64,000 bases of DNA, taken from the NCBI GenBank assembly GCA_965279565.1, contig OZ257249.1, positions 2,897,116 to 2,961,115 on the forward strand, in the 5' to 3' direction. Origin of the DNA: Tagaea sp. Lineage in GTDB: Bacteria; Pseudomonadota; Alphaproteobacteria; CACIAM-22H2. Each line of letters opens with the position of its first letter. The first letter of the stretch is position 1. The position numbers were made by a program, and so were the translations under genes. Below the pieces are notes generated by a model. That model was not told where the DNA came from, ran no database searches, and saw nothing but the letters and a program-made list of their open reading frames with translations. Positions 3,177 through 50,490 of this stretch are shown one piece after another.

Positions 3177-3337
3177 CCTTGGTTTCCGCTCAATTCCCTT
3201 CGTTGCCGGAAATTGTGGAAACTATCATTGAAATCATTGAATAAGCAGAAGTCTGGGGGACTGGGGGTCGCAGGTTCGAATCCTGTCGCTCCGACCATCA
3301 AAGAAGCCCGCTAAATCAATGATTTAGCGGGCTTCAC
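3177..3337 (+). repeat. repeat family copy A: conserved leader + tRNA 3'-half-like module (…GGGGGTCGCAGGTTCGAATCCTGTCGCTCCGACCA) + 13-bp-stem hairpin GCCCGCTAAATCAaTGATTTAGCGGGC
   Basis: Seen directly. Leader CCTTGGTTTCCGCTCAATTCCCTTCGTTGCCGGAAATTGTGGAAACTATCATTGAAATCATTGAATAAGCAGAAGTCTGGGGGA. T-arm is a 5-bp stem GCAGG/CCTGT with one G-U pair and loop TTCGAAT. Then a 7-nt acceptor strand CGCTCCG, discriminator A, CCA. Lies between the convergent HK and kdpE genes. Confidence 0.8.
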
Positions 3338-3350
3338 GGTTTCGGGATTG

Positions 3351-3520
3351 CCTCTGGTTTCCACGTAGTTTCCATCCGGTTTCCTTTGCTGCCGAAAAGG
3401 AGGGAAACTGACGTTGAAATATTTGAATAAGCAGCAGTCCAAAGGACGGGGATCTTAGGTTCGAATCCTGTCGCGCCGACCGTCAAAAAAGCCCACTGCC
3501 GGGCAACCGGCGCGGGCTTT
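3351..3520 (+). repeat. repeat family copy B, tandem to A and more diverged: leader + GGATCTTAGGTTCGAATCCTGTCGCGCCGACCG + hairpin GCCCACTGCCGGgcaaCCGGCGCGGGC-TTT
   Basis: Same architecture and strand as copy A with an internal insertion in the leader (TTTCCATCCGGTTTCC). Ends 5 nt before the kdpE stop. Confidence 0.7.
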
Positions 3521-3525
3521 GTCGT

Positions 3526-4221
3526 TCAGGTGCCCAATATGAATCTATAGCCCACACCGGGTTCGGTCAGAATGAAGCGTGGCGCGGCAGGGTCGTCTCC
3601 AAGCTTCTCGCGAAGCTGCCGTACATAGACCCGCAGGTACTGCGTATCGGCGACGTGCGCCGGCCCCCAAACGCGCTCGAGGACCATGCGGTGTGTCAGG
3701 ACCTTGCCGCCCGCCTGAGCAAGCAGCTTCAGCAGATCATACTCCTTGGGCGTAAGCTTGATCTCCGCGCCGGCTAGGCGGACGCGGCGCTGCACCAGAT
3801 CGATTTCGAGATCACCGCTGCGGATGATCGGCTCGGCGCCGGATTCTTGGAGTCGGTGCCGGAGGGCTGTGCGCAGGCGCGCGAGAAGTTCCGGCATGCC
3901 GAAGGGCTTGGTGACGTAGTCGTCTGCGCCCTCATCGAGTGCGGCAACCTTCTCGTCTTCACCGGCGCGCACCGACAGCACGATCACCGGTACGGCGGAG
4001 AACTCGCGGATGCGCGTCAACGCCGTGTGCCCGTCCTCGTCCGGCAGGCCGAGATCGAGGAGTACGGCGTCCGGCTTCTCGCGTGCGACGGCAGCAACGC
4101 CTTCGCGGGCGGTCGCGGCCTCGATCACGGTGTCGCCCTCGGCCTCCAGCGCCACGCGTAGCAGTTTGCGCAACTGCGGCTCGTCGTCGATGACCAGGAC
4201 GCGGCGCTTGGATGAGTTCAT
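3526..4221 (-). CDS. kdpE: KdpE, OmpR-family response regulator of the kdp operon
   Basis: MNSSKRRVLVIDDEPQLRKLL...winged-helix C-terminus (LTPKEYDLLKLLAQ...GYRF). The ATGA overlap with the kdpD stop indicates translational coupling. Confidence 0.9.
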   Translation of the reverse strand: MNSSKRRVLVIDDEPQLRKLLRVALEAEGDTVIEAATAREGVAAVAREKPDAVLLDLGLPDEDGHTALTRIREFSAVPVIVLSVRAGEDEKVAALDEGADDYVTKPFGMPELLARLRTALRHRLQESGAEPIIRSGDLEIDLVQRRVRLAGAEIKLTPKEYDLLKLLAQAGGKVLTHRMVLERVWGPAHVADTQYLRVYVRQLREKLGDDPAAPRFILTEPGVGYRFILGT

Positions 4222-6941
4222 CTCGGCTCCGGCCGGGCTTCGTCGGGCTGCGGATCGACCGGCAGGTCGACGATCGCGCGCGTACCGTAGCCGTCGAAGA
4301 TCGGGCTTTCCAGCCGGACCGTCCCGCCGTGCGCCTCGACGAGGCCACGGCAGATCGCAAGCCCCAATCCGGTTCCGGCGATCTGCCGGTCGCCCCAGCG
4401 CCCGTCCTCCCCGCCACGCACGCGATAGAACTTGTCGAAGACGCGCTCGAGATCGGCGGCAGGCACGCCTCGGCCGCGGTCCTCGATGGCGATTCGCAGC
4501 CGCGAGCCGGTTACGGAAGTCGCGACGGAGATTGACGTACCGTCCGGTGAGTATTTGGTCGCATTGTCGAGAAGATTGTAAAGAGCCTGACCGAGCAGTG
4601 TCGGATCGACACGCAGCAGCGGCAAGTTCGGGCTGGCGGATACCGTCACTTCGCGTGCGGGAAGTCGTTTGCGCAGTCGGGCCACGGCGGTACCGACAAG
4701 TTCGCGCACATCCGTCCAGTCGCGCCGAAGTGCAAGGGCACCACCTTCCAGACGCGTCATATCGAGCAGGTTGCCGACGAATCGCGCGAGGCGGTCGGAT
4801 TCCTCGTGGATCGCGTCGAGGAGCTGCCGCCGAGAATGTTCGTCGAGGCTGCTGCCGGTCCGCAGCGTGGAAATGGCCCCGGTGATCGTTGAAAGCGGTG
4901 TGCCGAGATCGTGGCTGATCGAGGAAAGCAGTGCGGCTCGCAGCTTCTCGGATTCGGCGAGCACCTTAGCTTCGCGCATTTCTGCGTCGAGTCGCATGCG
5001 GCCAATTGCGATTGCGGCCTGGTCGGCGAGCGCGTCGAGCAGCCGGCGCGCGTCGGGATCGAGCGACTTGTCCTTCGGCGGTCGGATCCCGAGTACTCCG
5101 ACCGGGCCGGCGGCCGTGCGCATCGGCACATAGAGCCGTTCTGCCGACGGCAGCGTGCCGGAGCCGAGGCCCGCCGCTTCGCCTTTGTCGCGGGCCCAAT
5201 GGGCGGCCGCCCAGTCGCCGGCGGGCAGGTCGTCCTCGGGTGGATAGCCGCCTCGCACGACAAGCCGTTCGTCCTGCGCGAGAAGTACGACGGTGCCTAC
5301 GCCCAGCATCGTCGCAACCTGGTGGGCGACAATCCAGATGAGATCGTCCAGTGCGGCGGCGGCAGCAAGTTTACGCGCAAAGTCGTAGAGGGCCGCGGTC
5401 GTCCGGAAGCGCCGACGTGCGTCTGTCGCCTGCTCGCGAACGCGGCTCGCCTGACTCGACAGCAGGACGGCGACGACGACGAAGATCGCCAGCGCCAGGA
5501 TGTCGCGCGGGTCACCGATCGTCAGCGTCAGGTAGGGCTCGACGAAGAAGAAGTCGAATACCAGTGTGGCCAGCAGCGAGGCATAGAGCGATGGCGACAG
5601 GCCGAAGCGCACTGCCGTGTAGATGATCGACGTGAGCAGCAGGATCGGCTCGACGTTCGGCGTGTCGAACTGCAGGCGAAGGAGCCAGCACAGCCCGGCC
5701 GCGGCGAAAACGGCACCGGTCGCCTCGATGAATGGTTGTGGCCCTCGGGCCGCGCGTGCAGCAAGCCGGACACGCAATGCGGCGGTGAGCCGTTCGCGCA
5801 CCGACGGGCCATCCGACGGCACGATATGCACCCCGATGGCATCGTTTGCGCGGATCAGCTCGTGCACGAGAGACCGTCCGAACCATTCGCGCCAGCGCGG
5901 TCGCCGGGTCTTGCCGATGATGATCTGGGTAATGTTCTGGCTGCGCGCGAGATCGAGGATTTCGACGACGACGTCGGACGTGGGGATCACGCGCGCCTCG
6001 CCGCCAAGCCGGTCTGCAAGCTTCAGCGCATCGGCAATGCGCGTCTTTGCGGCCTCGTCGAGGCTGGCGTGGTGCGGGGTCTCGAAATTCACCGCCATCC
6101 ACTTGGCACCGATCTGGTCCGCCAACCGCCGCGCTGCGCGAACGATAGGGGCGGGATCTGGATAAGCCGATATGCAGGCGAGGATGCGCTCGCCCGCCGG
6201 CCACGGCCCCGGAATCGCCTGGCGCAGCATCAGCCCGACCATCTGGTCGTCGACGCGCTCGGCGGTGCGGCGAAGTGCCAGTTCGCGTAAGGCGGTCAGG
6301 TTGCCGGGTCGGAAGAAATGCTCGGCTGCCCGTTCGGCATTGGTGCCCTTGTAGATCTTGCCTTCCTTGAGGCGCTTGATCAGGTCATCCGGCGTGAGAT
6401 CGACGAGTTCGATCGCGTCGGCGCGCTCGAGTACGGAATCCGGCAGCGTCTCCTGCACCCGCACGCCAGTGATTTTCGCGACGATGTCGTTGAGGCTTTC
6501 GAGGTGCTGGACATTCAGCGTCGTCCAGATATCGATGCCGGCGGCAAGCAATTCCTCGACGTCTTGATGGCGCTTGGGGTGACGCGATCCCGGCGCGTTC
6601 GTATGAGCGAGTTCGTCGACGAGCAGCAGGCCCGGCCGGCGGGAGAGGGCGGCGTCGATATCGAATTCTTCGATTTCGTGCCCGCGATGCGCGAGTCTGC
6701 GACGGGCCAGGACCTCGAATCCGTCGAGCTTGCCAGCGGTGGCGTCACGACCATGCGTTTCGATGATGCCGGCGACGACATCGATCCCCTCGGCTTTGCG
6801 CGCCTGTGCTGCTTCAAGCATCGCATAGGTCTTGCCCACGCCGGGGGCTGCACCCAGGAACACCTTCAGGCGGCCGGCCCCTTCGGACTTGGCGACCGCC
6901 AGCAGCGCATTCGGATCCGGGCGGTCGTCGGCGTTGGTCAT
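4218..6941 (-). CDS. kdpD: KdpD sensor histidine kinase (KdpD N-terminal domain, Usp, TM, GAF-like, HisKA/HATPase)
   Basis: 907 aa with a Walker-like N-terminal KdpD domain (FLGAAPGVGKTYAML), H-box ISHDLGTPLS and HATPase motifs (GTGLGLAICRGLVEAHGG). Confidence 0.9.
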   Translation of the reverse strand: MTNADDRPDPNALLAVAKSEGAGRLKVFLGAAPGVGKTYAMLEAAQARKAEGIDVVAGIIETHGRDATAGKLDGFEVLARRRLAHRGHEIEEFDIDAALSRRPGLLLVDELAHTNAPGSRHPKRHQDVEELLAAGIDIWTTLNVQHLESLNDIVAKITGVRVQETLPDSVLERADAIELVDLTPDDLIKRLKEGKIYKGTNAERAAEHFFRPGNLTALRELALRRTAERVDDQMVGLMLRQAIPGPWPAGERILACISAYPDPAPIVRAARRLADQIGAKWMAVNFETPHHASLDEAAKTRIADALKLADRLGGEARVIPTSDVVVEILDLARSQNITQIIIGKTRRPRWREWFGRSLVHELIRANDAIGVHIVPSDGPSVRERLTAALRVRLAARAARGPQPFIEATGAVFAAAGLCWLLRLQFDTPNVEPILLLTSIIYTAVRFGLSPSLYASLLATLVFDFFFVEPYLTLTIGDPRDILALAIFVVVAVLLSSQASRVREQATDARRRFRTTAALYDFARKLAAAAALDDLIWIVAHQVATMLGVGTVVLLAQDERLVVRGGYPPEDDLPAGDWAAAHWARDKGEAAGLGSGTLPSAERLYVPMRTAAGPVGVLGIRPPKDKSLDPDARRLLDALADQAAIAIGRMRLDAEMREAKVLAESEKLRAALLSSISHDLGTPLSTITGAISTLRTGSSLDEHSRRQLLDAIHEESDRLARFVGNLLDMTRLEGGALALRRDWTDVRELVGTAVARLRKRLPAREVTVSASPNLPLLRVDPTLLGQALYNLLDNATKYSPDGTSISVATSVTGSRLRIAIEDRGRGVPAADLERVFDKFYRVRGGEDGRWGDRQIAGTGLGLAICRGLVEAHGGTVRLESPIFDGYGTRAIVDLPVDPQPDEARPEPR

Positions 6942-6953
6942 ACGGACTTTCGG

Positions 6954-7514
6954 CTAGGGCCGCAGTGCATCGAGGGCGAGATTGAGGCCGAGAACATCGA
7001 CCCGTGGCTGGCCCAGTATGCCGAGTTCGCGGCCGTGCGTGAACTGCGCCAAAAGATTCCGGACCCGGTCCTCCGGGACCCCGCGTGCGGCGGCAACCCG
7101 CGCCACCTGGCGCTCGGCATTTGCGGGCGAGATATGCGGGTCGAGGCCGGATGCGGATGCCAGCACGGCATCCGCGGGGATCGGCTTCGGCCCCCCAAGC
7201 GTTTCGACGTCGCTCTTCACGCGCTCGACAAGCTTGGCCGACGTTGGCCCGAGATTGGCACCGCCAGAAGAGGTCGCGTCATATCCGGCGCTGCCGGCGG
7301 CGGAGGGCCGACCGTGGAAATATCGGTCGCTGGCGAAACTCTGGCCGATCAGCGCCGATCCGACGACACGGCCGTCGCGTTCGATCAGCGAGCCGTTGGC
7401 GGCATGGCTGAACGCGATCTGGCCGATTCCGGTGACTAGCAGCGGATAAAGCACGCCGCAAATCACCGAAAACACGATCAGCAGAACGAAGGCGGGGCGG
7501 ATATGGACGTACAT
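6954..7514 (-). CDS. kdpC: KdpC, K+-transporting ATPase subunit C
   Basis: Real protein starts at the internal ATG (MYVHIRPAFVLLIVFSVICGVLYPLLVTGIGQ...), 186 aa. The listed 357-aa ORF carries an Arg-rich spurious N-terminal extension that overlaps kdpB. Confidence 0.85.
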   Translation of the reverse strand: MYVHIRPAFVLLIVFSVICGVLYPLLVTGIGQIAFSHAANGSLIERDGRVVGSALIGQSFASDRYFHGRPSAAGSAGYDATSSGGANLGPTSAKLVERVKSDVETLGGPKPIPADAVLASASGLDPHISPANAERQVARVAAARGVPEDRVRNLLAQFTHGRELGILGQPRVDVLGLNLALDALRP

Positions 7515-7522
7515 GGCTAACC

Positions 7523-9562
7523 TCACGCGAGCCCGAGGGCGGAAACGAGAATGTCGACGGCCTTGATGCCAACGAACGGAACGAGGATGCCGCCCAGCCC
7601 GTAGACGAGCAGGTGACGGCGCAGAAGTTCGCCGGCCGGCATCGGGCGATAGGCGATGCCCTTCAGCGCCAGCGGGATCAGCGCCACGATGATCAGGGCA
7701 TTGAAGATCACTGCCGACAGGATGGCGCTTTGCGGCGTGGCCAACCCCATGACATTGAGTGCGCCGAGCTGCGGGTAGGCGGCGACAAACAGGGCCGGGA
7801 TGATCGCGAAGTATTTCGCGACGTCGTTGGCGATCGAGAACGTCGTCAGCGCGCCGCGCGTCATGAGGAGCTGCTTGCCGATGCCGACGACCTCGATCAG
7901 CTTGGTCGGGTTCGAATCGAGATCGACCATGTTGCCGGCCTCGCGCGCAGCCTGCGTGCCGGTCTGCATGGCAAGCCCGACATCGGCCTGGGCAAGGGCA
8001 GGCGCGTCGTTCGTACCGTCGCCGCACATCGCCACCAGCCGGCCCTTGGCTTGTTCGGCGCGGATGAAGGCGAGCTTGTCTTCGGGCGTCGCCTCTGCGA
8101 TGAAATCGTCTACGCCAGCCTCGGCGGCGATGGCCGCGGCTGTCAGCTTGTTGTCGCCAGTGACCATCACCGTGCGCACGCCCATCCGGCGAAGCTCGGC
8201 AAAGCGCTCGCGGATCCCGGCTTTGACGATGTCCTTCAGGTAGATGATGCCGAGGAGACGGGTACCTGTGGTACCGGTCTCTGCGACAGCCAGCGGCGTG
8301 CCGCCGCTGCGCGCGATGCGTTCGACTTGTTCAGCCACCGCCGTCGGCAGCGGGACGCCCGCGAACCGCACGATTGAATCGACGGCCCCCTTGCGGATAC
8401 GTCGCCCCGGCAGGTCGACACCGGAAATCCTGGTCTGCGCAGTGAAAGGGACGAACACGGCCGCAGGGTCGCCGGCGGGGGCCGCTCCAAGCCGTTCCTG
8501 GGCGAGACGGACGATCGAGCGTCCTTCGGGCGTCTCGTCGGCGAGCGAAGCGAGGAGGGCCGCCTCGGCGAGTTCCCGCTCCGATACGCCCAGTGCGGGC
8601 GCGAAAGCCGTCGCCATGCGATCGCCCAGCGTGATCGTCCCGGTCTTGTCGAGCAGCAGCACATCGACGTCGCCGGCCGCTTCGACCGCGCGGCCCGACG
8701 TCGCCAGCACGTTGAACTTCACCAGCCGGTCCATGCCAGCTATCCCAATCGCCGAGAGCAGACCGCCGATGGTGGTAGGGATCAACGTCACGAACAGCGC
8801 GACCAGAACCGTCAACGACAGGGCAACTCCGGCGTAGGCCGCGAATGCTGGCAGGGTCGCGACGACCACAACGAAGATCAACGACATCCCGGCGAGAAGA
8901 ATGTTCAGCGCGATCTCGTTGGGCGTCTTCTGCCGAGAGGCACCCTCGACGAGGGCAATCATCCGGTCGAGGAAGCTCGATCCCTGTGCTGCCGTGATCT
9001 TGATCCTGATCCAGTCCGACAGGACGACCGTGCCGCCGGTGACGGCCGACCGGTCGCCTCCCGACTCTCGGATGACCGGGGCGGATTCGCCGGTGATGGC
9101 GCTTTCATTGACCGACGCGATGCCTTCGACGACGGAGCCGTCGCCCGGGATCGTGTCGCCCGCCTCGACCATGACGACGTCGCCAACCTCTAGCTCGGTC
9201 GCGGACACCTTCTCGTATATGTCGCCGGGGCCGTAGACGATCCGCTTGGCCCAGGTCTCGGTCTTCACCTTGCGCAGCGCGTCGGCCTGCGCCTTGCCGC
9301 GCCCTTCGGCGACGGCTTCGGCGAAATTGGCGAACAGGACGGTGAACCAAAGCCATGCCGCGATCTGGCCAGAGAATCCCGCCGAGTGATCGCCGGCGAG
9401 ATCCCGGACGAAGGTGAGGGTTGCGACGCCAGCAACCACGGCGGTTACGAAGATGACCGGATTGCGGACGAGGCCGCGCGGATCGAGCTTGGCGAAGGCC
9501 GCACGGGCGGCCGGCAGCAGGATCGCGGGGTCGAAAAGCGAGATTTCCTTGGCGCGTGCCAT
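7523..9562 (-). CDS. kdpB: KdpB, P-type ATPase catalytic subunit
   Basis: 679 aa with phosphorylation motif DKTGTIT, plus TGDN and [10 protein letters not shown] motifs. Confidence 0.95.
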
Positions 9563-9586
9563 GGTCGTTGTTCCTTTTCTGCGCGA

Positions 9587-11296
9587 TCAGAAGGTCTGGC
9601 CGGCGAGCATCGCGAAATGCTCGACGATCGGACCGAGAGCGAGGGCCGGGAAGAAGCTGAGGCCACCGACGACTAGGATTGTGCCGGCAAGCAGCACGAC
9701 GAACAGCGGGCCATCAGTCGGGAAGGTGCCATCGGAGGCAGGCACGCGCTTCTTGGCAGCAAGCGCGCCAGCGAGTGCGAGCACCGGCACGATGATTGCG
9801 AAGCGTCCGACCAGCATCGCGATCCCGAGCGTGGTGTCCCAGAACGGCACGCTGGCGGTGAGCCCGGCAAAGGCCGAGCCGTTGTTGCCTACGGCCGACG
9901 TGTAGGCATAGAGCGCCTCGGAAAAGCCGTGCGGACCGTCGTTGTTGAGCCCGCCGAGAGCGCCCGGCCAGAGCAGGGCAAGGGCCGTGAACGCCAGGAT
10001 GAAGACCGGTGGCACAAGTACGACGAGGCTGGCAAGCTTGACCTCGCGCGCCTCGATCTTCTTGCCGAGATACTCGGGCGTACGCCCGACCATCAGGCCG
10101 GCAACGAACACTGCGATCACTGCATAGACCAACATGCCGTACAACCCCGAGCCCACGCCGCCGAACACGATCTCGCCAAGCTGGATCATGAACATCGGCA
10201 CGAGGCCACCGAGCGGCGTGAAGCTGTCATGCATTGCATTGACTGAGCCGTTGGAGGCGGCAGTGGTGACTACGGCCCAGATAGCCGACCAGGCAATGCC
10301 GAAGCGGGCTTCCTTGCCTTCCATGTTGCCGTCGGCAGGGTCGAGGCCAAGTGCGATCAGGATCGGGTTGCCGGCAGCCTCCGCGGCGTAGCAGGCGGCA
10401 AGCCCTACAAGCAGCAGCACAGTCATAGTTGCGAGCAGGACGGTTCCCTGGCGCGATGCGCCGACCATCCGGGCGAACGTCACGGTGAGTGCGGCGGGGA
10501 TAGCCAGAATCGCCCATAACGAAAGCAGGTTCGTCCATCCGTTCGGATTTTCGAATGGGTGGGCGGAGTTGGCATTGAAGAAGCCACCGCCGTTGGTGCC
10601 GAGCTGCTTGATCGCAATCTGCGAGGCGACAGGGCCTAGCGCGATCGACTGCGAGGCGCCTTCGAGCGTTGTCGCCTCGACATTGGCCGAAAAGCTCTGT
10701 GGAATGCCGAGTGCGACGAAAGAGATCGCCAGAGCAAGTGACAATGGCAGCAAGACATAGAGGGTTCCGCGTGTCAGGTCCGCCCAGAAATTTCCCACCC
10801 CGCGTGATTCAATGCGCGCAAAGCCGCGCGTCAAAGCCAGTGCCAACGCGATGCCCGTCGCCGCAGATACGAAGTTCTGCGTCGCGAGACCGAACATCTG
10901 CGACAGATGGCTCATCGTCGATTCGCCGCCATAAGACTGCCAATTCGTGTTGGTGACGAAGCTGACCGCCGTATTGAATGCCAAATGCGGGTCGAGCGCG
11001 GCAAGGTCGTTCGGGTTGAGCGGCAAAACGCCCTGCAGGCGAAGCAGCCCATAGAGTAGAACGAAACCGGCTGCATTGAAGGCGAGCATCGCACCGACAT
11101 AGCCGAGCCATCCCTGGTCGCGAGTCGCGTCGATGCCGGCGAACCGGTAGAGATCCACCTCGATGCGTCCGAGGAGCGGGGACAAGAACGTCCGCTCGCC
11201 GGCGAAAACGCGCGCCATATAGACGCCGAGAGGGACAGCACTGGCGAGAACCAGGCCGACGACAAGCAAGATCTGTAGCCATCCCATCGGGGTCAT
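9587..11296 (-). CDS. kdpA: KdpA, K+-translocating subunit
   Basis: 569 aa polytopic membrane protein ([31 protein letters not shown]...). Canonical position between kdpF and kdpB. Confidence 0.95.
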
Positions 11297-11324
11297 GGCG
11301 GGTACTCCGGTTCTCTCGTGTGTT

Positions 11325-11411: not shown

Positions 11412-11421
11412 CGGGGCGCCC

Positions 11422-41414: not shown

Positions 41415-42518
41415 ATGACCAACGTGACTTTCAGCGGCGTGACGAAGCGCTTCGGCACCGTCGTGGCCCTCGAAAGCCTCGACCTCAAGATCGAGGCGGG
41501 CGAGTTCGTCTCGCTGCTCGGGCCGTCGGGCTCGGGCAAGACGACGTCGCTCAACCTGCTGGCGGGCCTGCTGCCGATCGACGACGGCGAGATCCGCATC
41601 GGCGACAAGGTCGTCAACGACCTGCCGCCGGACAAGCGCGACATCGCGATGGTGTTCCAGAACTACGCGCTCTATCCGCACATGACGGTGTTCGAGAACA
41701 TCGCCTTCCCGCTGCGCGCACGTCAGCGCCGCGTGGGCGAGGCCGAAATCGTCCAGCGCGTCGACCGCGTGGCGGGCGCCATGGGCATTGGCGACCTGCT
41801 CGCCCGCTATCCCAAGGAGCTTTCCGGCGGGCAGCAGCAGCGCGTGGCGCTGGGACGCGCGATGGTGCGCGATCCCAAGGTCTTCCTGCTCGACGAGCCG
41901 CTGTCGAACCTCGACGCGCGCCTGCGCATCCGCATGCGCCACGACATCAAGGCGCTGCACCAGTCGATCAAGTCGACGATCGTCTACGTCACGCACGACC
42001 AGGCCGAGGCGATGAGCATGTCCTCGCGCATCGCGGTCTTCAACAAGGGGCGGCTGCAGCAGTACGGCACGCCGCGCCAGATCTATGCCGAGCCGGTCAA
42101 CCAGTTCGTCGCGAACTTCGTGGGCGAACGCGAGACGACCTTCATCGACGGCACGCTCGTCGAGCGCGGCGGCGTGCCCACGTTCGAGGCCGGCGGGGCG
42201 GCGATCCCGATCGCGGGCGCGCAGACGCGCTTCCCGTCGGCGATGGGCCGGCCGGTACGCCTGGGCGTGCGCGCCGAAAGCGTGCGACTGGCCGAAGGCG
42301 GATCGCGCGGCGCCCTGCCCGCGACGGTGACGCTCAGCGAACTCTCCGGTCCCGACCAGATCCTCTATGTGCGCACGGCGGCCGGCATCGAGCTGTGCTG
42401 CCGGACCGATCCGGCGACGATCGCGCGGCCGGGCGACACGGTGCCGATCGAGTTCGTCGCGAGCCTGCTGCACGCGTTCGATCCGGCGACGGGCGAGACC
42501 CTCGCCAAAGCTTCCTGA
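41415..42518 (+). CDS. sugar ABC transporter ATP-binding protein (MalK/UgpC-like)
   Basis: Walker A GPSGSGKTT, signature LSGGQQQRVALGRA, and a TOBE-like C-terminus. Confidence 0.9.
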   Translation: MTNVTFSGVTKRFGTVVALESLDLKIEAGEFVSLLGPSGSGKTTSLNLLAGLLPIDDGEIRIGDKVVNDLPPDKRDIAMVFQNYALYPHMTVFENIAFPLRARQRRVGEAEIVQRVDRVAGAMGIGDLLARYPKELSGGQQQRVALGRAMVRDPKVFLLDEPLSNLDARLRIRMRHDIKALHQSIKSTIVYVTHDQAEAMSMSSRIAVFNKGRLQQYGTPRQIYAEPVNQFVANFVGERETTFIDGTLVERGGVPTFEAGGAAIPIAGAQTRFPSAMGRPVRLGVRAESVRLAEGGSRGALPATVTLSELSGPDQILYVRTAAGIELCCRTDPATIARPGDTVPIEFVASLLHAFDPATGETLAKAS

Positions 42519-42540
42519 AGACGGGGCGGAACCTTTCCAG

Positions 42541-43944
42541 ATGGCACAGACACTCAACCGGATCGAATTCGACGTCGTGGTGCTGGGCGGCGGTGCCGCG
42601 GGCGTGGCGAGCGCCATCGCGGCGGCGCGCAACGGGGCGCGCACGGTGCTGATCGATGCCGGGCCGATGATCGGCGGCGAGATGGTCAGCGGCATCCCGA
42701 TCGACGGGTGCCTCTCCAGCCGCGGCGAATGGGTCGTCGGCGGCGTGATCCGCGACATCTTCGCCGAGTGCGAGCGCCTGGGCGGCTATATCGGCCCGGT
42801 CAACGACTATCGCTCGCTCAACGTCGTCGCCATCGATCCCGAGATCATGAAGATCGCGATCATGAACGAGGTGCGCAAGGTGGGCGTCACGCTGCTCCTC
42901 TACACGTTCGGCGAGGATGTCGTCGTGAACAAGGGCCGCGTCGAGGGCATCGTCGTCCTCAACAAGAACCAGCGCACGCTCGTCACCGGCAAGGTCTTCG
43001 TCGACTGTTCGGGCGACGGCGACATCGCGGTCGCGGCGGGCGCGCCCTTCGAACTCGGCGACGCGTCGGCGGGCGATCTCCAGCCGATCTCGATGGTGTT
43101 CCGCATGGTCGGGATCGAGACCGAGCCGCTGCTGCGCTTCGTGCGCGACAATCCCGAGAATTGCGGCCTTGGCGAGTATCCGGGCCTCAACATGACGCGC
43201 CAGCAATGCGCCGACGCGCTCTACAAGCAGGGTCTCGCCAAGGTCTTCCTCGTCTCCGAGGGGCCCTTGATGCGCCAGGCGATCGCGGCGGGCGATCTCT
43301 ACAAATCCTCGATGATCGCGGTCACGCCGGTGTCGCTCGCGCGCAAGGAAGTCAGCCTCAACACGACGCGCATCGGCAACATCGACGCGACGAAGACCGA
43401 GCAGCTGAGCCGCGCACTGCCCGACCTGCTCGACCAGGTGTGGAACTGCACCGCCTTCATGAAAAAATACGTGCCCGGCTTCGAGAACGCGCATTTCTCG
43501 GGCCTCGCCCCGCGCATCGGAATCCGCGAGACGCGCCGCATCATGTGCGACTACGTGCTGTCCGACGACGACGTCTATCAGGCGCGCAAGAAGGATGACG
43601 GGATCGCCAAGGGTGCGCACGAGGTCGACGTCCACGGCAGCGGCACCAAGCACCTGCGCGAGGCGGTCAAGGACGGGGGGTCCTACGACATTCCCTACGC
43701 CACGCTCGTCGCGCGCACGCTTGCCAACGTGTTCGTCGCCGGGCGCTGCATGTCGGCGACGCGCGTGGCGCACAGTTCGGCGCGCGTGATGGGTACGTGC
43801 ATGGCGATGGGCCAGGCGGCCGGTACGGCCGGTGCGATGTGCGCCAGCGCCAACGCATGGAGCGGCGACATCCGCGACGTGCGTGTGCCGCAGCTTCGCG
43901 ACGTGCTGCGCGCGCAGGGGGCGGTGCTCGATGGAACCTACTAG
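42541..43944 (+). CDS. FAD-dependent oxidoreductase (FAD_oxidored-type, about 465 aa)
   Basis: Start at MAQTLNRIEFDVVVLGGGAAGVASAIAAARNGARTVLIDAG, a dinucleotide-binding motif. Confidence 0.75.
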   Translation: MAQTLNRIEFDVVVLGGGAAGVASAIAAARNGARTVLIDAGPMIGGEMVSGIPIDGCLSSRGEWVVGGVIRDIFAECERLGGYIGPVNDYRSLNVVAIDPEIMKIAIMNEVRKVGVTLLLYTFGEDVVVNKGRVEGIVVLNKNQRTLVTGKVFVDCSGDGDIAVAAGAPFELGDASAGDLQPISMVFRMVGIETEPLLRFVRDNPENCGLGEYPGLNMTRQQCADALYKQGLAKVFLVSEGPLMRQAIAAGDLYKSSMIAVTPVSLARKEVSLNTTRIGNIDATKTEQLSRALPDLLDQVWNCTAFMKKYVPGFENAHFSGLAPRIGIRETRRIMCDYVLSDDDVYQARKKDDGIAKGAHEVDVHGSGTKHLREAVKDGGSYDIPYATLVARTLANVFVAGRCMSATRVAHSSARVMGTCMAMGQAAGTAGAMCASANAWSGDIRDVRVPQLRDVLRAQGAVLDGTY

Positions 43945-43960
43945 GTCCGGGAACTAGGCG

Positions 43961-45352
43961 ATGGCGCGCGCCATCCGTTCGCTGCACTACGACGTCGCCG
44001 TGATCGGCGGCGGCAGTGCCGGCGTGGCGGCGGCGGTCGCTTCCGCGCGCAACGGCGCGCGGACGGTCCTTGTCGATGCCGGCCCGATGGCGGGTGGCGA
44101 ACTGGTCAGCGGTCTGCCGCTCAACGCCGTGCTGAACGCGCGCGGCGAATGGGTCGCGGGCGGCATCTGCCGCGAGCTGGTCGAGGCGTGCCGCGCGATG
44201 GGCGGGCTCGTCGAGCCCTATTTCGACTGGCGCTCGCTGTGGCTCGTCTGCGTCGATCCGGAGATCATGAAGATCGCGGTCGCGCGCCTGCTGCGTGATG
44301 CCGGCGTCGACCTGCTGCTCTACAGCTTCGCCGAGGACGTCGTCGTCGAGGACGGCCGCGTCACCGGCGTGTTCGTGCTCAACAAGAACGGCCGCAACCT
44401 GGTCGAGGCCGACCTGTTCGTCGACTGCTCGGGCGACGGCGACATCGCGGCGATGGCGGGTGCCCCGTGGGAGAAGGGCGGCGAGAAGGGCGAACTGCAG
44501 CCCGTCACGCTGATCTTCCGCATGATGGGCGTGGAGACCGAGCCGCTGCTCGATTTCGTGCGCAAGCATCCCGAGAACGTGGGATTGGGCGAATGCCTGC
44601 TCGAGCCGCGCTCGAAATCCGACTGCGCGGAAGAGCTCTACCGGCAGGGCGTGCCGTCGGTGTTCTTCGACGGCAAGGCGCCGTTCGTGGCGCGCGCGAT
44701 CGAACGGGGCGAGCTGCATCCGTGCGGCATCCTCGCGGTCTGCCCGCTTTCCACCCAGCGGCGCGAGGTCAGCCTCAACACCACGCGCATCGCCAATCTC
44801 GACGCGACGCGCACCGACGTGCTGAGCCAGGCCCTGCCGCAGCTCCTCGACCAGGTCTGGACCTGCGCGAGCTTCCTGACGAAGCGCGTGCCTGGCTTCG
44901 AGAAGGCCGCCTTCAGCGGGATCGCGCCGCGCATCGGCATCCGCGAGACGCGGCGTATCCTCGGCGAATACGTGCTGACCGGGGCCGACGTGCTCGCCGG
45001 GCGCAAGCGCGCCGACGGCATCTGCAAGGGCGCGCACGAACTGGACGTGCACGGGGCCGGCAGCGCGCATCGCCGCGAGATGATCGCCGAAGGCGGCTCC
45101 TACGACGTGCCGTTCGGCTGCCTGCTGCCCAAGCGCACGGCGAACATGCTCGTCGCGGGGCGCTGCCTGTCGGCGACGCGCGAGGCGCACGGGTCGGCGC
45201 GCGTGATGGGCACATGCATGGGCATGGGGCAGGCGGCGGGAACCGCCGCGGCCCTGTGCGCGGCGGATGGAACATCCCTGCGGCAGCTATCGGTGCCCGC
45301 TTTGCGCGAGCGCCTGGCTTCGCAGGGGGCGATTCTCGAAGGAACACACTAG
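43961..45352 (+). CDS. FAD-dependent oxidoreductase, tandem paralog of the previous
   Basis: MARAIRSLHYDVAVIGGGSAGVAAAVASARNGARTVLVDAG. Collinear similarity to the 42541 gene across the whole length, roughly 50-60% identity by eye. Confidence 0.75.
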   Translation: MARAIRSLHYDVAVIGGGSAGVAAAVASARNGARTVLVDAGPMAGGELVSGLPLNAVLNARGEWVAGGICRELVEACRAMGGLVEPYFDWRSLWLVCVDPEIMKIAVARLLRDAGVDLLLYSFAEDVVVEDGRVTGVFVLNKNGRNLVEADLFVDCSGDGDIAAMAGAPWEKGGEKGELQPVTLIFRMMGVETEPLLDFVRKHPENVGLGECLLEPRSKSDCAEELYRQGVPSVFFDGKAPFVARAIERGELHPCGILAVCPLSTQRREVSLNTTRIANLDATRTDVLSQALPQLLDQVWTCASFLTKRVPGFEKAAFSGIAPRIGIRETRRILGEYVLTGADVLAGRKRADGICKGAHELDVHGAGSAHRREMIAEGGSYDVPFGCLLPKRTANMLVAGRCLSATREAHGSARVMGTCMGMGQAAGTAAALCAADGTSLRQLSVPALRERLASQGAILEGTH

Positions 45353-45386
45353 GCGGATCAACCGTCATAACGAAGGAGAGGGAACG

Positions 45387-46676
45387 ATGGGACATTTCAG
45401 GAGCCTTACGGGCACGGCGCTGCTGGCGCTGGCAACGATCGGAAGCGGGGCCGCTTCCGCGCAGACGACCGTCACGATGTGGACGTTCCTCGATCCGCTG
45501 CGCACGTCGCCGCGCGAGATCGCGCTCAAGCAGATGATCGAGGGCTTCGAGAAGGCCAACCCGTCGATCAAGATCAAGGTCGAGCCGCAGGACTTCGCGC
45601 AGATGCCGCCGCGCTTCTTCCTCGGCCACGGTACGGGCCAGAATCCCGACATCGTGTGGATCGACGCCAAGAATCTCGGCGGCCTGATCCAGTCGGGTGC
45701 GGCGACCGACCTGCAGCAGACGCTCGTCTCGAAATGGCCGGCCGGCCAGCGCGAGGATTTCTTCGTGGGTGCGGGCTGGGATGCGGCCAAGCAGGGCAAC
45801 AAGCTGCACGCCCTGCCGCTGTTCCACGGTGCGAGCGTGATCTACTACCGCAAGGACCTGCTGCGCGAGGCCGGCATCGATCCGGCGACGCTGAAGAGCT
45901 GGGATGCCATCGCCGAGGCGGCCAAGAAGCTGACCAAGACGAAGGACGGCCGCGTCGACGTGTGGGGCTTCGGCATGCCGCTCGCCCCCACCAAGACGGA
46001 GAGCACGCCGCTGCTGATCGGCATGATCGACGCCGGCGGGCAGATCTTCAACGGCTGCAAGGCGAACTTCGCCACGCCGGCCGGCGTGCGCGGGCTCAAC
46101 TTCACCGCCTCGCTGATCACCCAGCACAAGGTCACGCCGCAGGAAGCGCTGGCCCAGCACGTGGACGACATCACCGACCAGTTCACGGCCGGTCGCTACG
46201 CGATGGCGATCACCGCGAACCTGCGCTTCAGCGCCGTGGCGCGCGCCGCGGCGTTCGGCGGCTCGAACATCGGCGTCCTGCCGTGGCCGACCTGGACGGG
46301 TCAGGGCACGGGGCCCATGCCGGTCTCCGGCTGGTGGGTCGCGATGTGGAACAAGTCGCCGCGCCAGGCCGAAGCCGGGAAGTTTGTCGAGTACATGACC
46401 GGGGCCGAGGGCGTGAAGCTCTGGTCGACGGTCGGCGGACAGGTCCCGACGCGCAAGTCCGTCCTCGCCGAACCCGTCTTCAAGGAGCCGCAGAACGAGT
46501 GGATCCAGACGATGGTCGCGGCGTGGTCGGCCCGCAGCTGGATCGAGCCCACCGAGTGCAACACCCGCACGATGCAGGCCGCCCTCAACGAGGCCGTGCA
46601 CCGCGTGGTGCTGCAGAACGCCAACCCGATGGACGCGCTCAGGGAAGCCGAGCGCAAGTTCAACGACGCCCAGTAA
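45387..46676 (+). CDS. second sugar ABC substrate-binding protein (paralog of 38359)
   Basis: Start MGHFRSLTGTALLALATIGSGAASA with an AAGGAGAG SD. Shares blocks with the first binding protein (QTTVTMW.FLDP, GWDA, GQVPTR, PTECNT). Confidence 0.85.
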   Translation: MGHFRSLTGTALLALATIGSGAASAQTTVTMWTFLDPLRTSPREIALKQMIEGFEKANPSIKIKVEPQDFAQMPPRFFLGHGTGQNPDIVWIDAKNLGGLIQSGAATDLQQTLVSKWPAGQREDFFVGAGWDAAKQGNKLHALPLFHGASVIYYRKDLLREAGIDPATLKSWDAIAEAAKKLTKTKDGRVDVWGFGMPLAPTKTESTPLLIGMIDAGGQIFNGCKANFATPAGVRGLNFTASLITQHKVTPQEALAQHVDDITDQFTAGRYAMAITANLRFSAVARAAAFGGSNIGVLPWPTWTGQGTGPMPVSGWWVAMWNKSPRQAEAGKFVEYMTGAEGVKLWSTVGGQVPTRKSVLAEPVFKEPQNEWIQTMVAAWSARSWIEPTECNTRTMQAALNEAVHRVVLQNANPMDALREAERKFNDAQ

Positions 46677-46742
46677 CGACGACAAGCGGCGGGGCGGCCG
46701 TCGGGCCGCCCCGGTCCGCATCAACCCGAGAGGAACGAGAAC

Positions 46743-47501
46743 GTGGACACCAAGCTTGCCGACAAGACCGTCTTCATCACCGGCGCCGGTGCCGGCATCG
46801 GGCAGTCGATCGCGAAGCATTTCGCGATCGAGAAGACGAACGTCTACGTCACCGACATCAGTGGTGCTGCGGCCGAGCAGACCGCCAAGGAAATCTGCGA
46901 TGCCGGCGGCCGTGCGACCGCCATGGCGCTCGACGTGACGAAGCGCGCGGACGTGTTCGCCGCGATCGGCAAGGTCGTGGATGCGACGGGCGGCGTCGAC
47001 GTGCTCGTCAACAATGCCGGCGTGGTGGCGCTGGCGAAGATCGAAGAGATCACCGAATCGGAGTTCGACCGCATCTATGCGGTCAACGTGAAGGGCAAGC
47101 TTTTCTGCATGCAGGCGGCGGTGCCCGCCATGAAGAAGCGCAAGTGGGGTCGGATCATCAACACCTGCTCGATCTCGGGCAAGACGGGCGGCAAGCTGCC
47201 CTACGCGCACTACACCTCGTCGAAGGCCGCTGTGTGGACCATGACGATGGCCGCCGCGCACGAGTTCGCGCCGTTCGGCATCAACGTCAACGGGATCGCG
47301 CCCGGCTCGGTCATCGGAACGGCCTTCTCGAAGGGCTTCGATCTCAACAACGATCCGGAAGTCCTGAAGGCGACGATCCCGCTGGCGCGCCGCGGCGTGC
47401 CGGACGACATCGCACCTGCCGTGGTCTTCCTTGCCTCTGACGGGGCCCGCTACATCACCGGCGAGCTCATCGACGTCAATGGCGGACTGCACATGGATTG
47501 A
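46743..47501 (+). CDS. SDR-family oxidoreductase
   Basis: GTG start. TGAGAGIG glycine motif, NNAG, YxxxK (YTSSKAAV). Confidence 0.85.
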   Translation: MDTKLADKTVFITGAGAGIGQSIAKHFAIEKTNVYVTDISGAAAEQTAKEICDAGGRATAMALDVTKRADVFAAIGKVVDATGGVDVLVNNAGVVALAKIEEITESEFDRIYAVNVKGKLFCMQAAVPAMKKRKWGRIINTCSISGKTGGKLPYAHYTSSKAAVWTMTMAAAHEFAPFGINVNGIAPGSVIGTAFSKGFDLNNDPEVLKATIPLARRGVPDDIAPAVVFLASDGARYITGELIDVNGGLHMD

Positions 47502-47511
47502 GGGCACGAAC

Positions 47512-48726
47512 GTGGCATCCCTGAAAATCGAAGCGATCGAATGCATCCCGGTCACGGTGCCGATCGAGGCGCCGATCCTGACCTGCTACGGCTCGCTCGC
47601 GGCCTATCCGCGCGTGCTGGTCAAGATCGTCGCCGAGAACGGCCTCGTCGGCTACGGCGAGACGGCGGCCCGCTACAAGCCGGAGACGTTCCGGATGTTC
47701 GAGTCGATCTTCAAGGGATCGAATCCCTGGGAGTCGACGCGGCTGATCAGCCGGATCAAGCACTGGAACTACTATCCCTGGCAGAAGCCCGAGCCGCTGA
47801 TGGCCGGGCTCGAGCTTGCGTGCCTCGACCTGGTTGGCAAGTCGATCGGCGAACCGCTGCACCGCATCCTCGGCGGCAAGATCCACAAGGAGGTGCCCGT
47901 CGCCTCCTACCTGTTCTATCGCCACGCCAACGCGGCCGGGCAGGGCAAGATCCATACGGTCGACGAGGTCGTGGCCTTCGCCAAGGCGCAGGTCGCGCAG
48001 TACGGGTTCGGCGCGCTGAAGCTCAAGGGCGGCTATTTCTCGCCGGAAACGGATCGCGACGCGCTTGTCGCACTTCGCGACACGTTCGGGCGCGACATGC
48101 GCCTGCGCCTCGATCCGCAGGGCTGCTGGACGCCGGTCACGGCCGTGCGCATCGGCCGTCAGCTCGACGCGATCGACCTCGAATACTACGAGGATCCGTG
48201 CTGGAACGCCGCCGGGATGGCGCGCGTCAAGAAGTCGGTCACCACGCCGCTGGCGACCAACATGTGCGTGACGCAGTTCGAGGAGTTCCATCCCGCGACG
48301 TCGATCGGGGCGGTCGACGTCGTGCTCAGCGATCTCTGGTACTGGGGCGGAGCGCGCGCGACGATGGCGGTCGACCGGATGTGCCATGCCAGCGGCATCG
48401 ATCTCGGCATGCATTCCAGCGCCGAGCTGGGCGTGGGCTGGGCCGCGATGATCCATGTCGCGAGCGCCATGCCGCACCTGAAGCTCGCCATCGACTGCAT
48501 GAACCTGCATCTCGTCGACGACATCATCGTCGGCGGCAAGCTCGTGCCGAAGAACGGCACGATCGCGCCGCCCGACGGCCCGGGGCTGGGCGTGGAGATC
48601 GACGAGGTGAAGCTGAAGAAGTACGCGGAACTCGCGCGTTCGGGCTCGGCGAGCGACCGCTTCCTCGATCCGACGCTGGCCGATAGTGCAAGGCCGGGCT
48701 GGCATCCGCACAGCCCGACCTGGTGA
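47512..48726 (+). CDS. enolase-superfamily enzyme (mandelate racemase/muconate lactonizing family; glucarate-dehydratase-like)
   Basis: Start at the GTG after the SDR stop, with a GAGGG SD (MASLKIEAIECIPVTVP...). MR_MLE N- and C-domains with conserved acid/base and metal-ligand positions (KLKGG, LDPQG, EDP). Confidence 0.75.
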   Translation: MASLKIEAIECIPVTVPIEAPILTCYGSLAAYPRVLVKIVAENGLVGYGETAARYKPETFRMFESIFKGSNPWESTRLISRIKHWNYYPWQKPEPLMAGLELACLDLVGKSIGEPLHRILGGKIHKEVPVASYLFYRHANAAGQGKIHTVDEVVAFAKAQVAQYGFGALKLKGGYFSPETDRDALVALRDTFGRDMRLRLDPQGCWTPVTAVRIGRQLDAIDLEYYEDPCWNAAGMARVKKSVTTPLATNMCVTQFEEFHPATSIGAVDVVLSDLWYWGGARATMAVDRMCHASGIDLGMHSSAELGVGWAAMIHVASAMPHLKLAIDCMNLHLVDDIIVGGKLVPKNGTIAPPDGPGLGVEIDEVKLKKYAELARSGSASDRFLDPTLADSARPGWHPHSPTW

Positions 48727-48743
48727 GACAAGCAGGGGACAGG

Positions 48744-49412
48744 ATGATCGATCTCGACAAGCACGACTGGCCGTCGATCGCGGCGCGCTTCAAGCGGCTC
48801 TACACGCCGGCGGTCTGCGACGTGCTCGACGACTACGAGCTGCGCCACCAGTACGTCCACCATGGCATCCGGCCGCTCGACCGCACGCTGATGCTGGCAG
48901 GCCCCGCCTTCACGATCGTCGGCATGTCGAACTCGACGCGCGACAAGTCCAAGCGCATGGGGCCGCGCGTCATCGACAGCTTCGTGCCGCATGTCGTGGC
49001 CTGCTACGACACGATGGGCAACGAGGACACCGGCGTGTGGGGCGAGCTGTGGAGCGTGGGTGCCGCCAAGCGCGGCTGCGTGGGTGCCGTCGTCGATGGC
49101 GGCATTCGCGACACGGCCTATATCCGGCGCGCGGGCTTCCCGATGTACCATCGCCACACCGCACCGGGCGACGCGGTCGGCCGTTTCAACATCGTCGATT
49201 TCAACTGCCCGGTGTCGATCGGCGGCGTGCGCGTCAATCCGGGCGACTACGTCTTCGGCGACGAGGACGGCATCATGATCATCCCGCGCGCGATCACGAT
49301 CGAGGTGCTGGAGAGGGCGGAAACCGTCTGCGCGCGCGAGAACCGCATCCGCGACGCGATCGACGGGAACACCTCGCTCGCCGATCTCTACACGAAGTTC
49401 GGCCAGTTCTGA
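48744..49412 (+). CDS. RraA-like protein (4-hydroxy-4-methyl-2-oxoglutarate aldolase / RraA family)
   Basis: Start at the internal ATG (MIDLDKHDW...) with an AGGGGACAGG SD. RraA-like fold motifs GAVVDGGIRD and IIPR. Confidence 0.75.
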   Translation: MIDLDKHDWPSIAARFKRLYTPAVCDVLDDYELRHQYVHHGIRPLDRTLMLAGPAFTIVGMSNSTRDKSKRMGPRVIDSFVPHVVACYDTMGNEDTGVWGELWSVGAAKRGCVGAVVDGGIRDTAYIRRAGFPMYHRHTAPGDAVGRFNIVDFNCPVSIGGVRVNPGDYVFGDEDGIMIIPRAITIEVLERAETVCARENRIRDAIDGNTSLADLYTKFGQF

Positions 49413-49422
49413 GCGCCGCCGC

Positions 49423-50298
49423 ATGGCCGCCCCGAAGCGCCGAATCCTGCTGACGGGATCGCTCGGCCATCTCGGCGCGGCCGTCGCGCGTGAGCTTGCC
49501 GGGGCCGGACACGAGCTGACCTGCATCGACCGGCGCCCGCCCGACGGAAACCCGCCGGGCGCCTTCGTGCGCGACGACCTGTCGGATGTCGGGCGGCTCG
49601 CGGGCCTGATGAACGGGATGGACGCCGTCGTCCATTGCGCCGCGATCGCCAGGCTGCACGCGGCCCCCGAGGAAACGGTCTTCGCGACGAACGTCACGAC
49701 GACCGCGAACATGCTGCTTGCGGCCGAACGCGCCGGGATCGGCCGTTTCGTCTATGCGTCGAGCCAGTCGGCCCTGGGTTTCGCCTATGCGCCGCGCATC
49801 GTGCCTCCCGACCGGCTGCCGGTCGACGAGACGCATCCCTGCCGGCCGGTCGAAGGCTACGGGCTGAGCAAACGCGTGGGCGAACAGCTTTGCGAGATGG
49901 TGTCCGCGCGGTCGGCCATGACGAGCGTGGCGCTGCGCTTCCCGGTCATCTGGTCGCACGAACGTTTCGAGGCGCACACGCGCAAGCGACTCGACGATCC
50001 GGTCCAGGCAGCTAAGAGCCAATGGGCCTATGTCGACCTGCGCGACGCCGCCACTGCGTGCCGGCTTGTGTCAGAGGTAACGCTCACCCATCCTCATCGC
50101 GTATACAACATTGGCGCAAGCCGGCCATTCGAGCTTACTGATGCGGCCGTAATTCTAAGAGTTTCCTATGGCGAAGTTGATGGATTGTCGGATGTTTTAG
50201 CATCGGGTGATGCGTTGTTCGATACCACCCGGGCTAGGTTCGAACTAGGGTTCCAGGCGCAATGGTGCTGGAACAGAATGCGGGTCGAGCATGTCTAA
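49423..50298 (+). CDS. NAD-dependent epimerase/dehydratase family protein
   Basis: ILLTGSLGHLGAAVARELAGAGHEL Rossmann motif. The last ~70 codons (from about 50090) are markedly lower in GC than the rest of the gene. Confidence 0.75.
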   Translation: MAAPKRRILLTGSLGHLGAAVARELAGAGHELTCIDRRPPDGNPPGAFVRDDLSDVGRLAGLMNGMDAVVHCAAIARLHAAPEETVFATNVTTTANMLLAAERAGIGRFVYASSQSALGFAYAPRIVPPDRLPVDETHPCRPVEGYGLSKRVGEQLCEMVSARSAMTSVALRFPVIWSHERFEAHTRKRLDDPVQAAKSQWAYVDLRDAATACRLVSEVTLTHPHRVYNIGASRPFELTDAAVILRVSYGEVDGLSDVLASGDALFDTTRARFELGFQAQWCWNRMRVEHV

Positions 50299-50367
50299 CT
50301 GTTCGCACTTCATTGTCGGCCAAGTTGCTGAGGAGGTCGGGGACCAGAATGCCAATTTTCGTAACCT

Positions 50368-50490
50368 CGGTTCCTTGATTTCCACTCAGTTCGTTCAAAT
50401 GCGAGAAACGGTAGAAATGCCGTTGAAATCACTGAATAATTATCAGTTTTGAGGGCTGGGGGCGTAGATTCGGATCCTGTCGCTCCGACC
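50368..50490 (+). repeat. repeat family copy F (most diverged, AT-rich): GGTTCCTTGATTTCCACTC...CGTTGAAATCACTGAATAATTATCAG...GGCTGGGGGCGTAGATTCGGATCCTGTCGCTCCGACCA
   Basis: Same modular order as copies A-D and the same acceptor-like end CGCTCCGACCA, but a degraded T-arm and no clear downstream hairpin. Confidence 0.6.

Follow-up and report, generated by a model that had tools for sequence, protein, structure and literature searches.

Tandem tRNA-Pro-derived repeat units in Tagaea as probable attachment-site junctions between integrase-free cargo blocks

Introduction

In Dehalococcoides, islands specific for ssrA stand in tandem and are bounded by fragments of transfer-messenger RNA (tmRNA), and some of them lack integration genes (McMurdie et al. 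2011, PMC3146451). The islands of Prochlorococcus, with their tycheposons, adjoin transfer RNA (tRNA) genes, successive integrations push older elements inward, and partial tRNAs are left scattered among them (Hackl et al., bioRxiv 10.1101/2020.12.28.424599). A displaced tRNA 3' fragment in direct orientation marks the end of an island, both in the Islander concept (PMC4383910) and where tRNA gene fragments serve as attR (PMC9897764). Here we analyse a 64-kb stretch of DNA from Tagaea sp. (contig OZ257249.1), referred to in its whole length as the window, in which a repeat unit containing the 3' part of tRNA-Pro(GGG) separates blocks of cargo genes. We argue that the units are probably attachment-site junctions.

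The layout of the ssrA islands, in which the 3' end of a tRNA-like gene is repeated directly many times on one strand over ~100 kb and strain-specific cargo lies between the repeats, recurs at the Tagaea locus (PMC3146451). Both systems have a conserved, apparently element-derived motif immediately upstream of every repeat, and both include islands without integration genes, which in Dehalococcoides were read as cis-mobilizable elements (CIMEs) in accretion (PMC3146451). The two also differ. In Dehalococcoides the array begins with an intact ssrA, its repeats measure 20 bp (a T-loop crossover) and the recombinase is the serine recombinase DsiB, which 16 islands keep, whereas here the repeat is 48 nt long and starts from the anticodon stem, a conserved arm of ~75–95 nt precedes it, and no intact target gene or integrase was seen.

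The Prochlorococcus islands resemble the locus in having partial tRNAs through the island and nutrient-uptake modules as cargo (10.1101/2020.12.28.424599). However, tycheposons are defined by a tyrosine recombinase of their own and a replication module, with fragmented integrases among their remnants, and none of these was seen here; the taxon is also a different one, and the likeness drawn here is one of layout. The displaced 3' fragment in direct orientation is shared with tyrosine-integrase attP/attR sites in tRNA genes (PMC4383910; PMC9897764), but the regenerated intact tRNA and the integrase that Islander requires were found neither in the window nor in the related loci. CIMEs in accretion consist, as at this locus, of att-flanked cargo without integration or transfer functions (per PMC3146451); unlike the present blocks, they are defined by a neighbouring integrative and conjugative or integrative and mobilizable element that supplies the integrase, and no such neighbour was seen here. 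Finally, integron attC arrays share with the locus cargo units in the same orientation, conserved and partly palindromic sites between them, and cassettes free of recombinase genes. They differ in that no IntI, attI or Pc promoter was seen here, the sites derive from a tRNA and lack attC architecture, and the cassettes are multi-gene operons with regulators, whereas integron cassettes are mostly single promoterless open reading frames (ORFs).

Results

A family model was run with nhmmer over the window, and decayed copies were also judged by eye. The model returned five full units, at 3168–3340 (copy A), 3357–3525 (B), 11603–11776 (C), 25618–25793 (D) and 50371–50536 (F). Together with two decayed copies, E1 and E2, this gives seven in all, each on the + strand; no unit on the − strand and no further + copy was found within the window. 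A 25-nt T-arm/acceptor pattern matched the window five times and 100 shuffles not once, and a 16-nt arm motif matched five times against a shuffle mean of 0.13. The same-strand, multicopy intergenic repeat described in the original prediction is thus real, and, as stated there, its copies are not tRNA genes: ARAGORN found none in the 64-kb window.

According to sequence reading and copy alignment, a unit is ~170–175 nt long and consists of an arm (X), a tRNA-derived segment (O) and a GC-rich hairpin, in that order. Arm X, ~75–95 nt in length, is AT-richer, is unrelated to a tRNA 5' half, and carries a 9-bp inverted repeat, GGTTTCCRC...GYGGAAACY, together with the motif ATTGAAATCATTGAATAA. O comprises the 3' 48 nt of tRNA-Pro(GGG), from anticodon stem to CCA (tRNA positions ~29–76), as delimited against the genuine tRNA-Pro(GGG) of Methylobacterium bullatum. 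Its first nucleotides belong to the 5' anticodon-stem strand, and the anticodon loop is present in full; in copy A (3250–3297) O reads AGT, CTGGGGG (anticodon loop, anticodon GGG), ACTGG, GGGTC, GCAGG-TTCGAAT-CCTGT (T-arm) and CGCTCCG-A-CCA. The T-arm, acceptor strand and CCA had already been assigned to tRNA-Pro, which the comparison with M. bullatum upholds, but the tRNA-derived part had been drawn too short, and CTGGGGG, previously counted as part of the leader, belongs to O. The hairpin, AAGCCCGC...GCGGGCTT, has a stem common to the copies and a variable loop. In most copies it abuts the stop codon of a convergent gene, and its T-run is better on the opposite strand.

O lies in direct orientation in all window copies, as attachment sites in an array do. 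The most variable stretch of the aligned units is the anticodon-loop region, and no terminal inverted repeats or target duplications were seen at the unit ends in the copy alignments. A search of a plasmid database with the unit gave matches limited to the tRNA part. Two other readings of the tRNA part were rejected. It is not the acceptor piece of a two-piece (permuted) tmRNA: ARAGORN reported none, the only match was a partial tmRNA match of 12.7 bits, and CGCTCCG lacks the G3:U70 alanine identity, which speaks against this reading by sequence reasoning as well. Split tRNA genes in the style of Nanoarchaeum were dropped because there are no matching 5' halves and several of the 3' halves are decaying.

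Copy A (3165–3340, +) has its arm at ~3177–3249, in which the inverted repeat GGTTTCCGC...GTGGAAACT is followed by the ATTGAAATCATTGAATAA motif at 3227–3244. Its hairpin (3304–3334) forms a perfect 15-bp stem, to which one more G-C pair could be added (3303–3335), and its O is 100% identical to copies from four other genomes. Copy B (3351–3525, +; O at 3436–3482, hairpin at 3489–3519) abuts A directly, without cargo between. It is a diverged and older copy, with identities to A of 71% in the arm and 78% in O, an anticodon loop mutated to CCAAAGG and mutations in the 5' strand of the T-stem as well; its hairpin abuts the kdpE stop codon at 3526 and scores as terminator-like when read on the − strand. 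Copy C (11599–11776, +; O at 11684–11731, hairpin at 11737–11772) stands between the kdp operon and the next cargo block, and its discriminator has changed from A to G. Copy D (25614–25793, +) has O at ~25702–25748, with three substitutions, and a degenerate hairpin at ~25753–25787. The identity of 85–92% given earlier for A, C and D is correct for A and C (92% over 135 nt) but not for A and D, whose arms are ~82% identical and whose tRNA parts 87%.

Of the two remnants, E1 (35428–35500, +) retains an arm start, GTTCCTTGATTGCC, and a T-loop-like GCTTCGAATCCTG around an internal deletion; it was seen by eye and not picked up by the nhmmer model, and its assignment is weak. E2 (35603–35660, +) is the 5' 52 nt of the arm only, with the tRNA part lost (nhmmer match 35603–35654, E = 5.8e-8). 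Copy F (50366–50540, +; O at 50445–50491, imperfect hairpin at ~50500–50530) is an old, diverged copy whose T-stem and loop are mutated (GTAGATTCGGATCC). Its derived changes, GCAGG->GTAGG and CGAATCC->xGGATC, recur in the related contig L032, where a decayed copy lying upstream of SbmA has them too.

A second tRNA 3' fragment follows copy D directly (25790–25819, +), with the T-arm GTAGGTTCGAGCCCTAC and the acceptor strand GGCGCCC-A-CCA, and may tentatively be called tRNA-Lys-like. A fragment of this kind stands directly after a Pro copy in both genomes, here and at 22114–22161 of L032, and the two T-arms are similar. The 68-nt tRNA-Lys(CTT) that ARAGORN reported in L032 is not a gene but a chimera of a decayed Pro fragment and the Lys 3' fragment.

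In an exact-pattern scan of one genome per species, the repeat family occurred only in three Tagaea metagenome-assembled genomes (MAGs) and one Rhodospirillales MAG; a related JGI contig (L032/L033) holds three more copies. The copies are clustered and confined to one strand in every contig that carries them: at 301, 313 and 373 kb in JBGAKN01 (all −, three within 72 kb), at 44, 56.5 and 62.8 kb in the Tagaea MAG CBDIIB01 (all +, three within 19 kb), and three within 18 kb on one strand in L032. The strand bias of the window extends to these contigs, in which the family is not scattered like repetitive extragenic palindromic (REP) elements or miniature inverted-repeat transposable elements (MITEs).

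Comparison of these contigs shows that the flanks re-assort at the copies. What lies downstream of C and of copy L007b (in a Tagaea MAG) is the same block, at 94% protein identity, whereas the upstream blocks differ, being kdp in one case and an insertion sequence (IS)/secretin block in the other. Copies L003 and L006 have the upstream block in common (98%), and their sequences part immediately after CCA; L001 and L012 have only the downstream block in common. In the alignment, the arm subtype tracks the upstream block and the hairpin and flank track the downstream block, so the exchange must fall within O. Among related genomes, DNA bounded by the units is swapped as a whole, and the breakpoints fall inside the repeat. 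This is the behaviour of attachment sites and the modularity that the original prediction had anticipated (L001/L012, L003/L006, C/L007b and L032).

One of these junctions could be foretold. The hybrid histidine kinase/response regulator/LuxR gene (HK; 853–3150, +) closes a conserved SbmA...HK block, which ends 15–25 nt before copy A. Immediately after copy F lies a 156-nt fragment of an SbmA/BacA-type gene (50595–50750, −; blastn 81% to L031 4666–4819, inside an intact SbmA_BacA gene), followed by TctABC genes. The fragment is the remnant left end of an SbmA...HK-like block, comparable with the block that ends at 3150. A copy was therefore predicted upstream of the SbmA...HK block, and the prediction held: in L032 this block is bracketed exactly by copies at 4301–4477 and 12308–12481, a decayed copy adjoins SbmA, and the decayed-copy/SbmA junction is the same as at F. 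By analogy with L032, the window array may extend past position 1. L031 has the same SbmA...HK block without any copy in an nhmmer scan of that contig, and L034 has the gene order of that block.

Three further features of the related contigs were recorded. In CBDIIB01, an IS3-family transposase fragment (rve_3; L007 1246–1683) fills, together with a secretin gene, a 6-kb block between two copies. The interval 1–2789 of L031, a relative that has no copy of the repeat, contains genes for an integrase (DUF6538 + Phage_integrase) and a resolvase ~1.2 kb left of the SbmA...HK block; no tRNA or tRNA fragment was found in that interval. In L032, positions 1–4268 upstream of the first copy hold a respiratory nitrate reductase cluster with narH, narJ, narI, rotamase, hemerythrin and NnrS. 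Since this cluster is the block upstream of the first copy, nitrate respiration is apparently one exchangeable block.

The arm motif, (C)ATTGAAATCATTGAAT(AA), is also found outside the tRNA-Pro family. In soil and viral contigs it precedes the 3' parts of tRNA-Gln, tRNA-Arg, tRNA-Gly and one tRNA of unassigned identity, and in all of these 3' halves, as in those of tRNA-Pro, it lies ~18–26 nt upstream of the T-stem (window 3227–3244; L015–L017, L019–L026 and L028–L030). In soil metagenome contigs the identical ATTGAAATCATTGAATAA, along with some of the arm upstream of it, runs into the 3' part of tRNA-Gln(UUG), and in another contig into part of tRNA-Arg(UCU). Identity to the tRNA sets in ~2 nt ahead of the anticodon loop in both fusions, and their right-hand flanks are variable. 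When IMG/VR was searched for the motif with a tRNA T-loop behind it, nine stretches matched. They form three independent groups, and none of them is a complete tRNA; two composition-matched shuffled motifs gave no matches. An IMG/VR search with the arm itself was discarded, as its 41 matches were all chance matches, none of them confirmed by nhmmer.

In five phage contigs a tyrosine integrase gene lies within ~1 kb of the motif site: L022 (734–1828), L028 (378–1478), L026 (9537–10691), L029 (3647–4819) and L023 (9962–11143; phrog_1, E = 4e-18). Such phage contigs with the arm motif were the only sequences with an integrase inside the bounded DNA; the window and the related loci had none. The clearest layout is that of IMGVR_UViG_3300037603_000023 (L023/L025; 64.8 kb), a predicted prophage with an integrase and a tail gene between two motif units. 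Both contig ends bear the motif and the 3' half of tRNA-Gly(UCC), preceded by an arm that is identical over at least 51 nt, and the downstream flanks differ, which indicates a tandem-array junction and not a simple terminal overlap. The resulting order, X-O-element-X-O, matches that of the window.

The motif contigs range from ~40% to 65% GC. CCA is often followed by the motif in inverted form (L026, L028), and the hairpin loop of copy A, AAATCAATGATTTAG, resembles the motif. By sequence likeness, the arm motif is akin to integrase-associated phage attP sites. Its occurrence at attP sites of unrelated integrases, at several tRNAs and in different phyla hints at an accessory factor that these sites may share.

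The original prediction had offered a second explanation for the repeat, a multicopy small-RNA family with a tRNA-like 3' end and its own terminator, which would be transcribed or processed from neighbouring transcripts. Several features of the unit speak for such an RNA: every unit ends in a GC-rich hairpin, O is highly conserved, the fold can give a 5+5 bp mini-helix ending in GACCA, and in the 9-bp inverted repeat of the arm 90% of cells remain paired, a few pairs having changed on both sides (three cases of CG to UA; GU/AU/GC at the closing pair). The kept pairing is as compatible with a palindromic DNA site as with an RNA stem, however, and the other tests went against an RNA. Rfam gave no family match at the gathering threshold and only chance-level matches in an E-value search. 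Scans of two intergenic regions, which together contain copies A, B and C, gave no sigma-70-like promoter, no conserved promoter-like block was seen in the copy alignment, and a sigma-54 or extracytoplasmic function promoter in the arm was rejected, since none with correct spacing or conservation was seen by eye. Folding energies were no better than those of shuffles (z −1.2 to +0.6). In the T-arm no pair showed double changes and four cells were broken, and the T-stem and acceptor mutations of B, D, F, L001 and L002 are uncompensated, as expected of DNA sites and not of a tRNA-like RNA. The variability of the anticodon-loop region and the orientation of the hairpin's better T-run count against an RNA as well.

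The cargo between the units consists of four blocks, annotated with Pfam. Block 1 (3526–11598, −) is the kdp operon, with kdpE, kdpD, kdpC, kdpB and kdpA (genes to ~11400), bracketed exactly by B and C. Block 2 (11777–25613, −), a 14-kb catabolic block, codes for a beta-eliminating lyase, an AMP-binding enzyme, a flavin adenine dinucleotide (FAD) oxidoreductase, a peptidase, an Opp/Dpp-type ATP-binding cassette (ABC) transporter, an alcohol dehydrogenase, a glyoxalase and a thioesterase. Block 3 (25820–35427, 9.6 kb) holds genes for a metallophosphoesterase, a sugar-type ABC transporter, a radical SAM protein, DUF3419 and a methyltransferase. Block 4 (35661–50365, 14.7 kb), of sugar-acid type, includes short-chain dehydrogenases, a GntR regulator, an ABC transporter, two paralogous FAD oxidoreductases, an enolase-superfamily enzyme, an RraA-like protein and an epimerase. 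All four blocks are flanked by units and code for transport, catabolic or regulatory proteins only, as in CIMEs, with their att flanks and lack of integration and transfer genes; Pfam revealed no integrase, recombinase or transposase among the ~50 window ORFs examined.

Block 4 also contains two pairs of paralogs. Its FAD-dependent oxidoreductase genes stand in tandem (42367–45352), with ~72–84% nucleotide identity and a spacing of 1417–1420 nt, and two paralogous solute-binding protein genes lie 7 kb apart (38359–39657 and 45267–46676).

Discussion

The units are probably attR/attP-type junctions of an integrative-element family that targets tRNA-Pro(GGG), and they bound cargo blocks that have accreted in tandem and lack an integrase. 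Among the explanations put forward in the original prediction, attR-type scars are the best supported, given the re-assortment of flanks at the copies, a tRNA part that starts at a crossover-type position and an arm motif that occurs beside phage tyrosine integrases. The anticodon stem/loop is a classical position of integrase crossover, and in the scheme that Williams is said to have set out in 2002, a fragment beginning at the anticodon arm belongs to the anticodon-loop crossover class.

We infer an integrase, its crossover point, a circular intermediate and sites that may be active at present, and the units could then have arisen as follows. Arm X would be the element's own end, and O the tRNA's 3' part (48 nt), which gains a second copy through integrase crossover in the anticodon-loop region. 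The hairpin would be a terminator that travels with the left end of the next block and also terminates the convergent gene. A circular [O-hairpin-cargo-X] could insert into any existing O to give X-O-cargo-X-O, and repeated insertions would stack operon-sized blocks head to tail on one strand, with one unit between each. As the blocks carry no integrase, they would be either fixed remnants or cis-/trans-mobilizable cassettes that need an integrase from elsewhere. The kind is already known, from tandem tRNA/tmRNA islands and cis-mobilizable elements; what is unusual here is that no integrase gene lies nearby.

Several observations weigh against this interpretation. Integrases or their remnants usually follow each repeat in ordinary tandem islands, whereas no integrase gene was found by Pfam in the 64-kb window or the Tagaea-type loci, and tblastn with six integrases gave no remnant in the window or the related arrays. 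The phage integrases beside the motif are not closely related to each other. No intact tRNA-Pro gene was found in the window, in the related loci examined or at any readable array end, and the proposal that successive integrations entered one tRNA-Pro gene found no confirmation. Eight copies from five genomes share an O that is 100% identical, arm identity across genera is 62–94% compared with ~75% nucleotide identity for the neighbouring HK gene, and the hairpin is conserved across genera too. This is more conservation than decaying scars should show, and O identity and arm conservation indicate sites that are maintained or homogenised, not merely decaying. Doublets without cargo, namely A–B and two cases in L032 (e.g., 4301–4477 with 4502–4566), do not follow from simple serial integration. 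Finally, homologous recombination could equally give exchange within an identical O of 48 nt.

This last point leads to an explanation that we consider unlikely, in which the unit is a non-autonomous repeat, either REP/MITE-like or a dispersed 170-bp homology patch, that captured a fragment of tRNA-Pro, and RecA-dependent recombination shuffles the blocks. It would account for the lack of an integrase near 17 copies, for repetition of the entire unit, hairpin included, and for the cargo-less doublets, and the 48 nt of perfect identity in O could be a minimal substrate for homologous exchange. However, in the contigs examined the copies keep to one region and one strand and are not dispersed in both orientations, and their ends have none of the terminal inverted repeats or target duplications that were looked for in the alignments. 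Nor would such a repeat be expected to begin its tRNA part at a typical integrase crossover position, or to share its arm motif with integrase-linked attP sites of other tRNAs.

An integron-like gene-capture platform is rather improbable. One chromosomal integrase, located at an array end outside the sequence examined, would insert and excise operon-sized cassettes, with the X-O site acting like attC. The arrays are indeed free of integrases, their sites are conserved and apparently maintained in at least 6 related genomes or contigs, the cargo is uniformly made up of adaptive transport and catabolic operons, and the sites contain a conserved inverted repeat. On the other hand, no integrase, attI-like site or common promoter was seen in the sequence examined, outside which the array ends lie, and the cassettes are full operons with regulators of their own, on both strands. 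Moreover, ordinary accretion followed by loss of the integrase gives the same pattern (PMC3146451). We give equally little credence to an extended form of the idea, a platform in Tagaea-like Rhodospirillales in which a single trans-acting integrase, with its gene outside the cassettes, would insert, excise and shuffle kdp, nar, ABC-transporter and catabolic operons that each bear one X-O site, with ATTGAAATCATTGAAT as an undescribed accessory binding site of many tRNA-targeting attP sites.

A small-RNA family is very unlikely; an RNA function would also leave the re-assortment of flanking blocks at the unit unexplained.

If the units are indeed attachment-site junctions, the persistence of well-kept sites with no integrase in sight goes beyond the routine and raises the question of what moves the blocks. 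The 50-kb-plus stretch would then be a gene-exchange hotspot with precisely defined sites, at which whole operons are added and swapped, including those for potassium uptake, nitrate respiration (in a relative), sugar and peptide transport, and catabolism. The units would provide ready-made markers for mapping island borders, and such arrays would account for much of a lineage's flexible genome.

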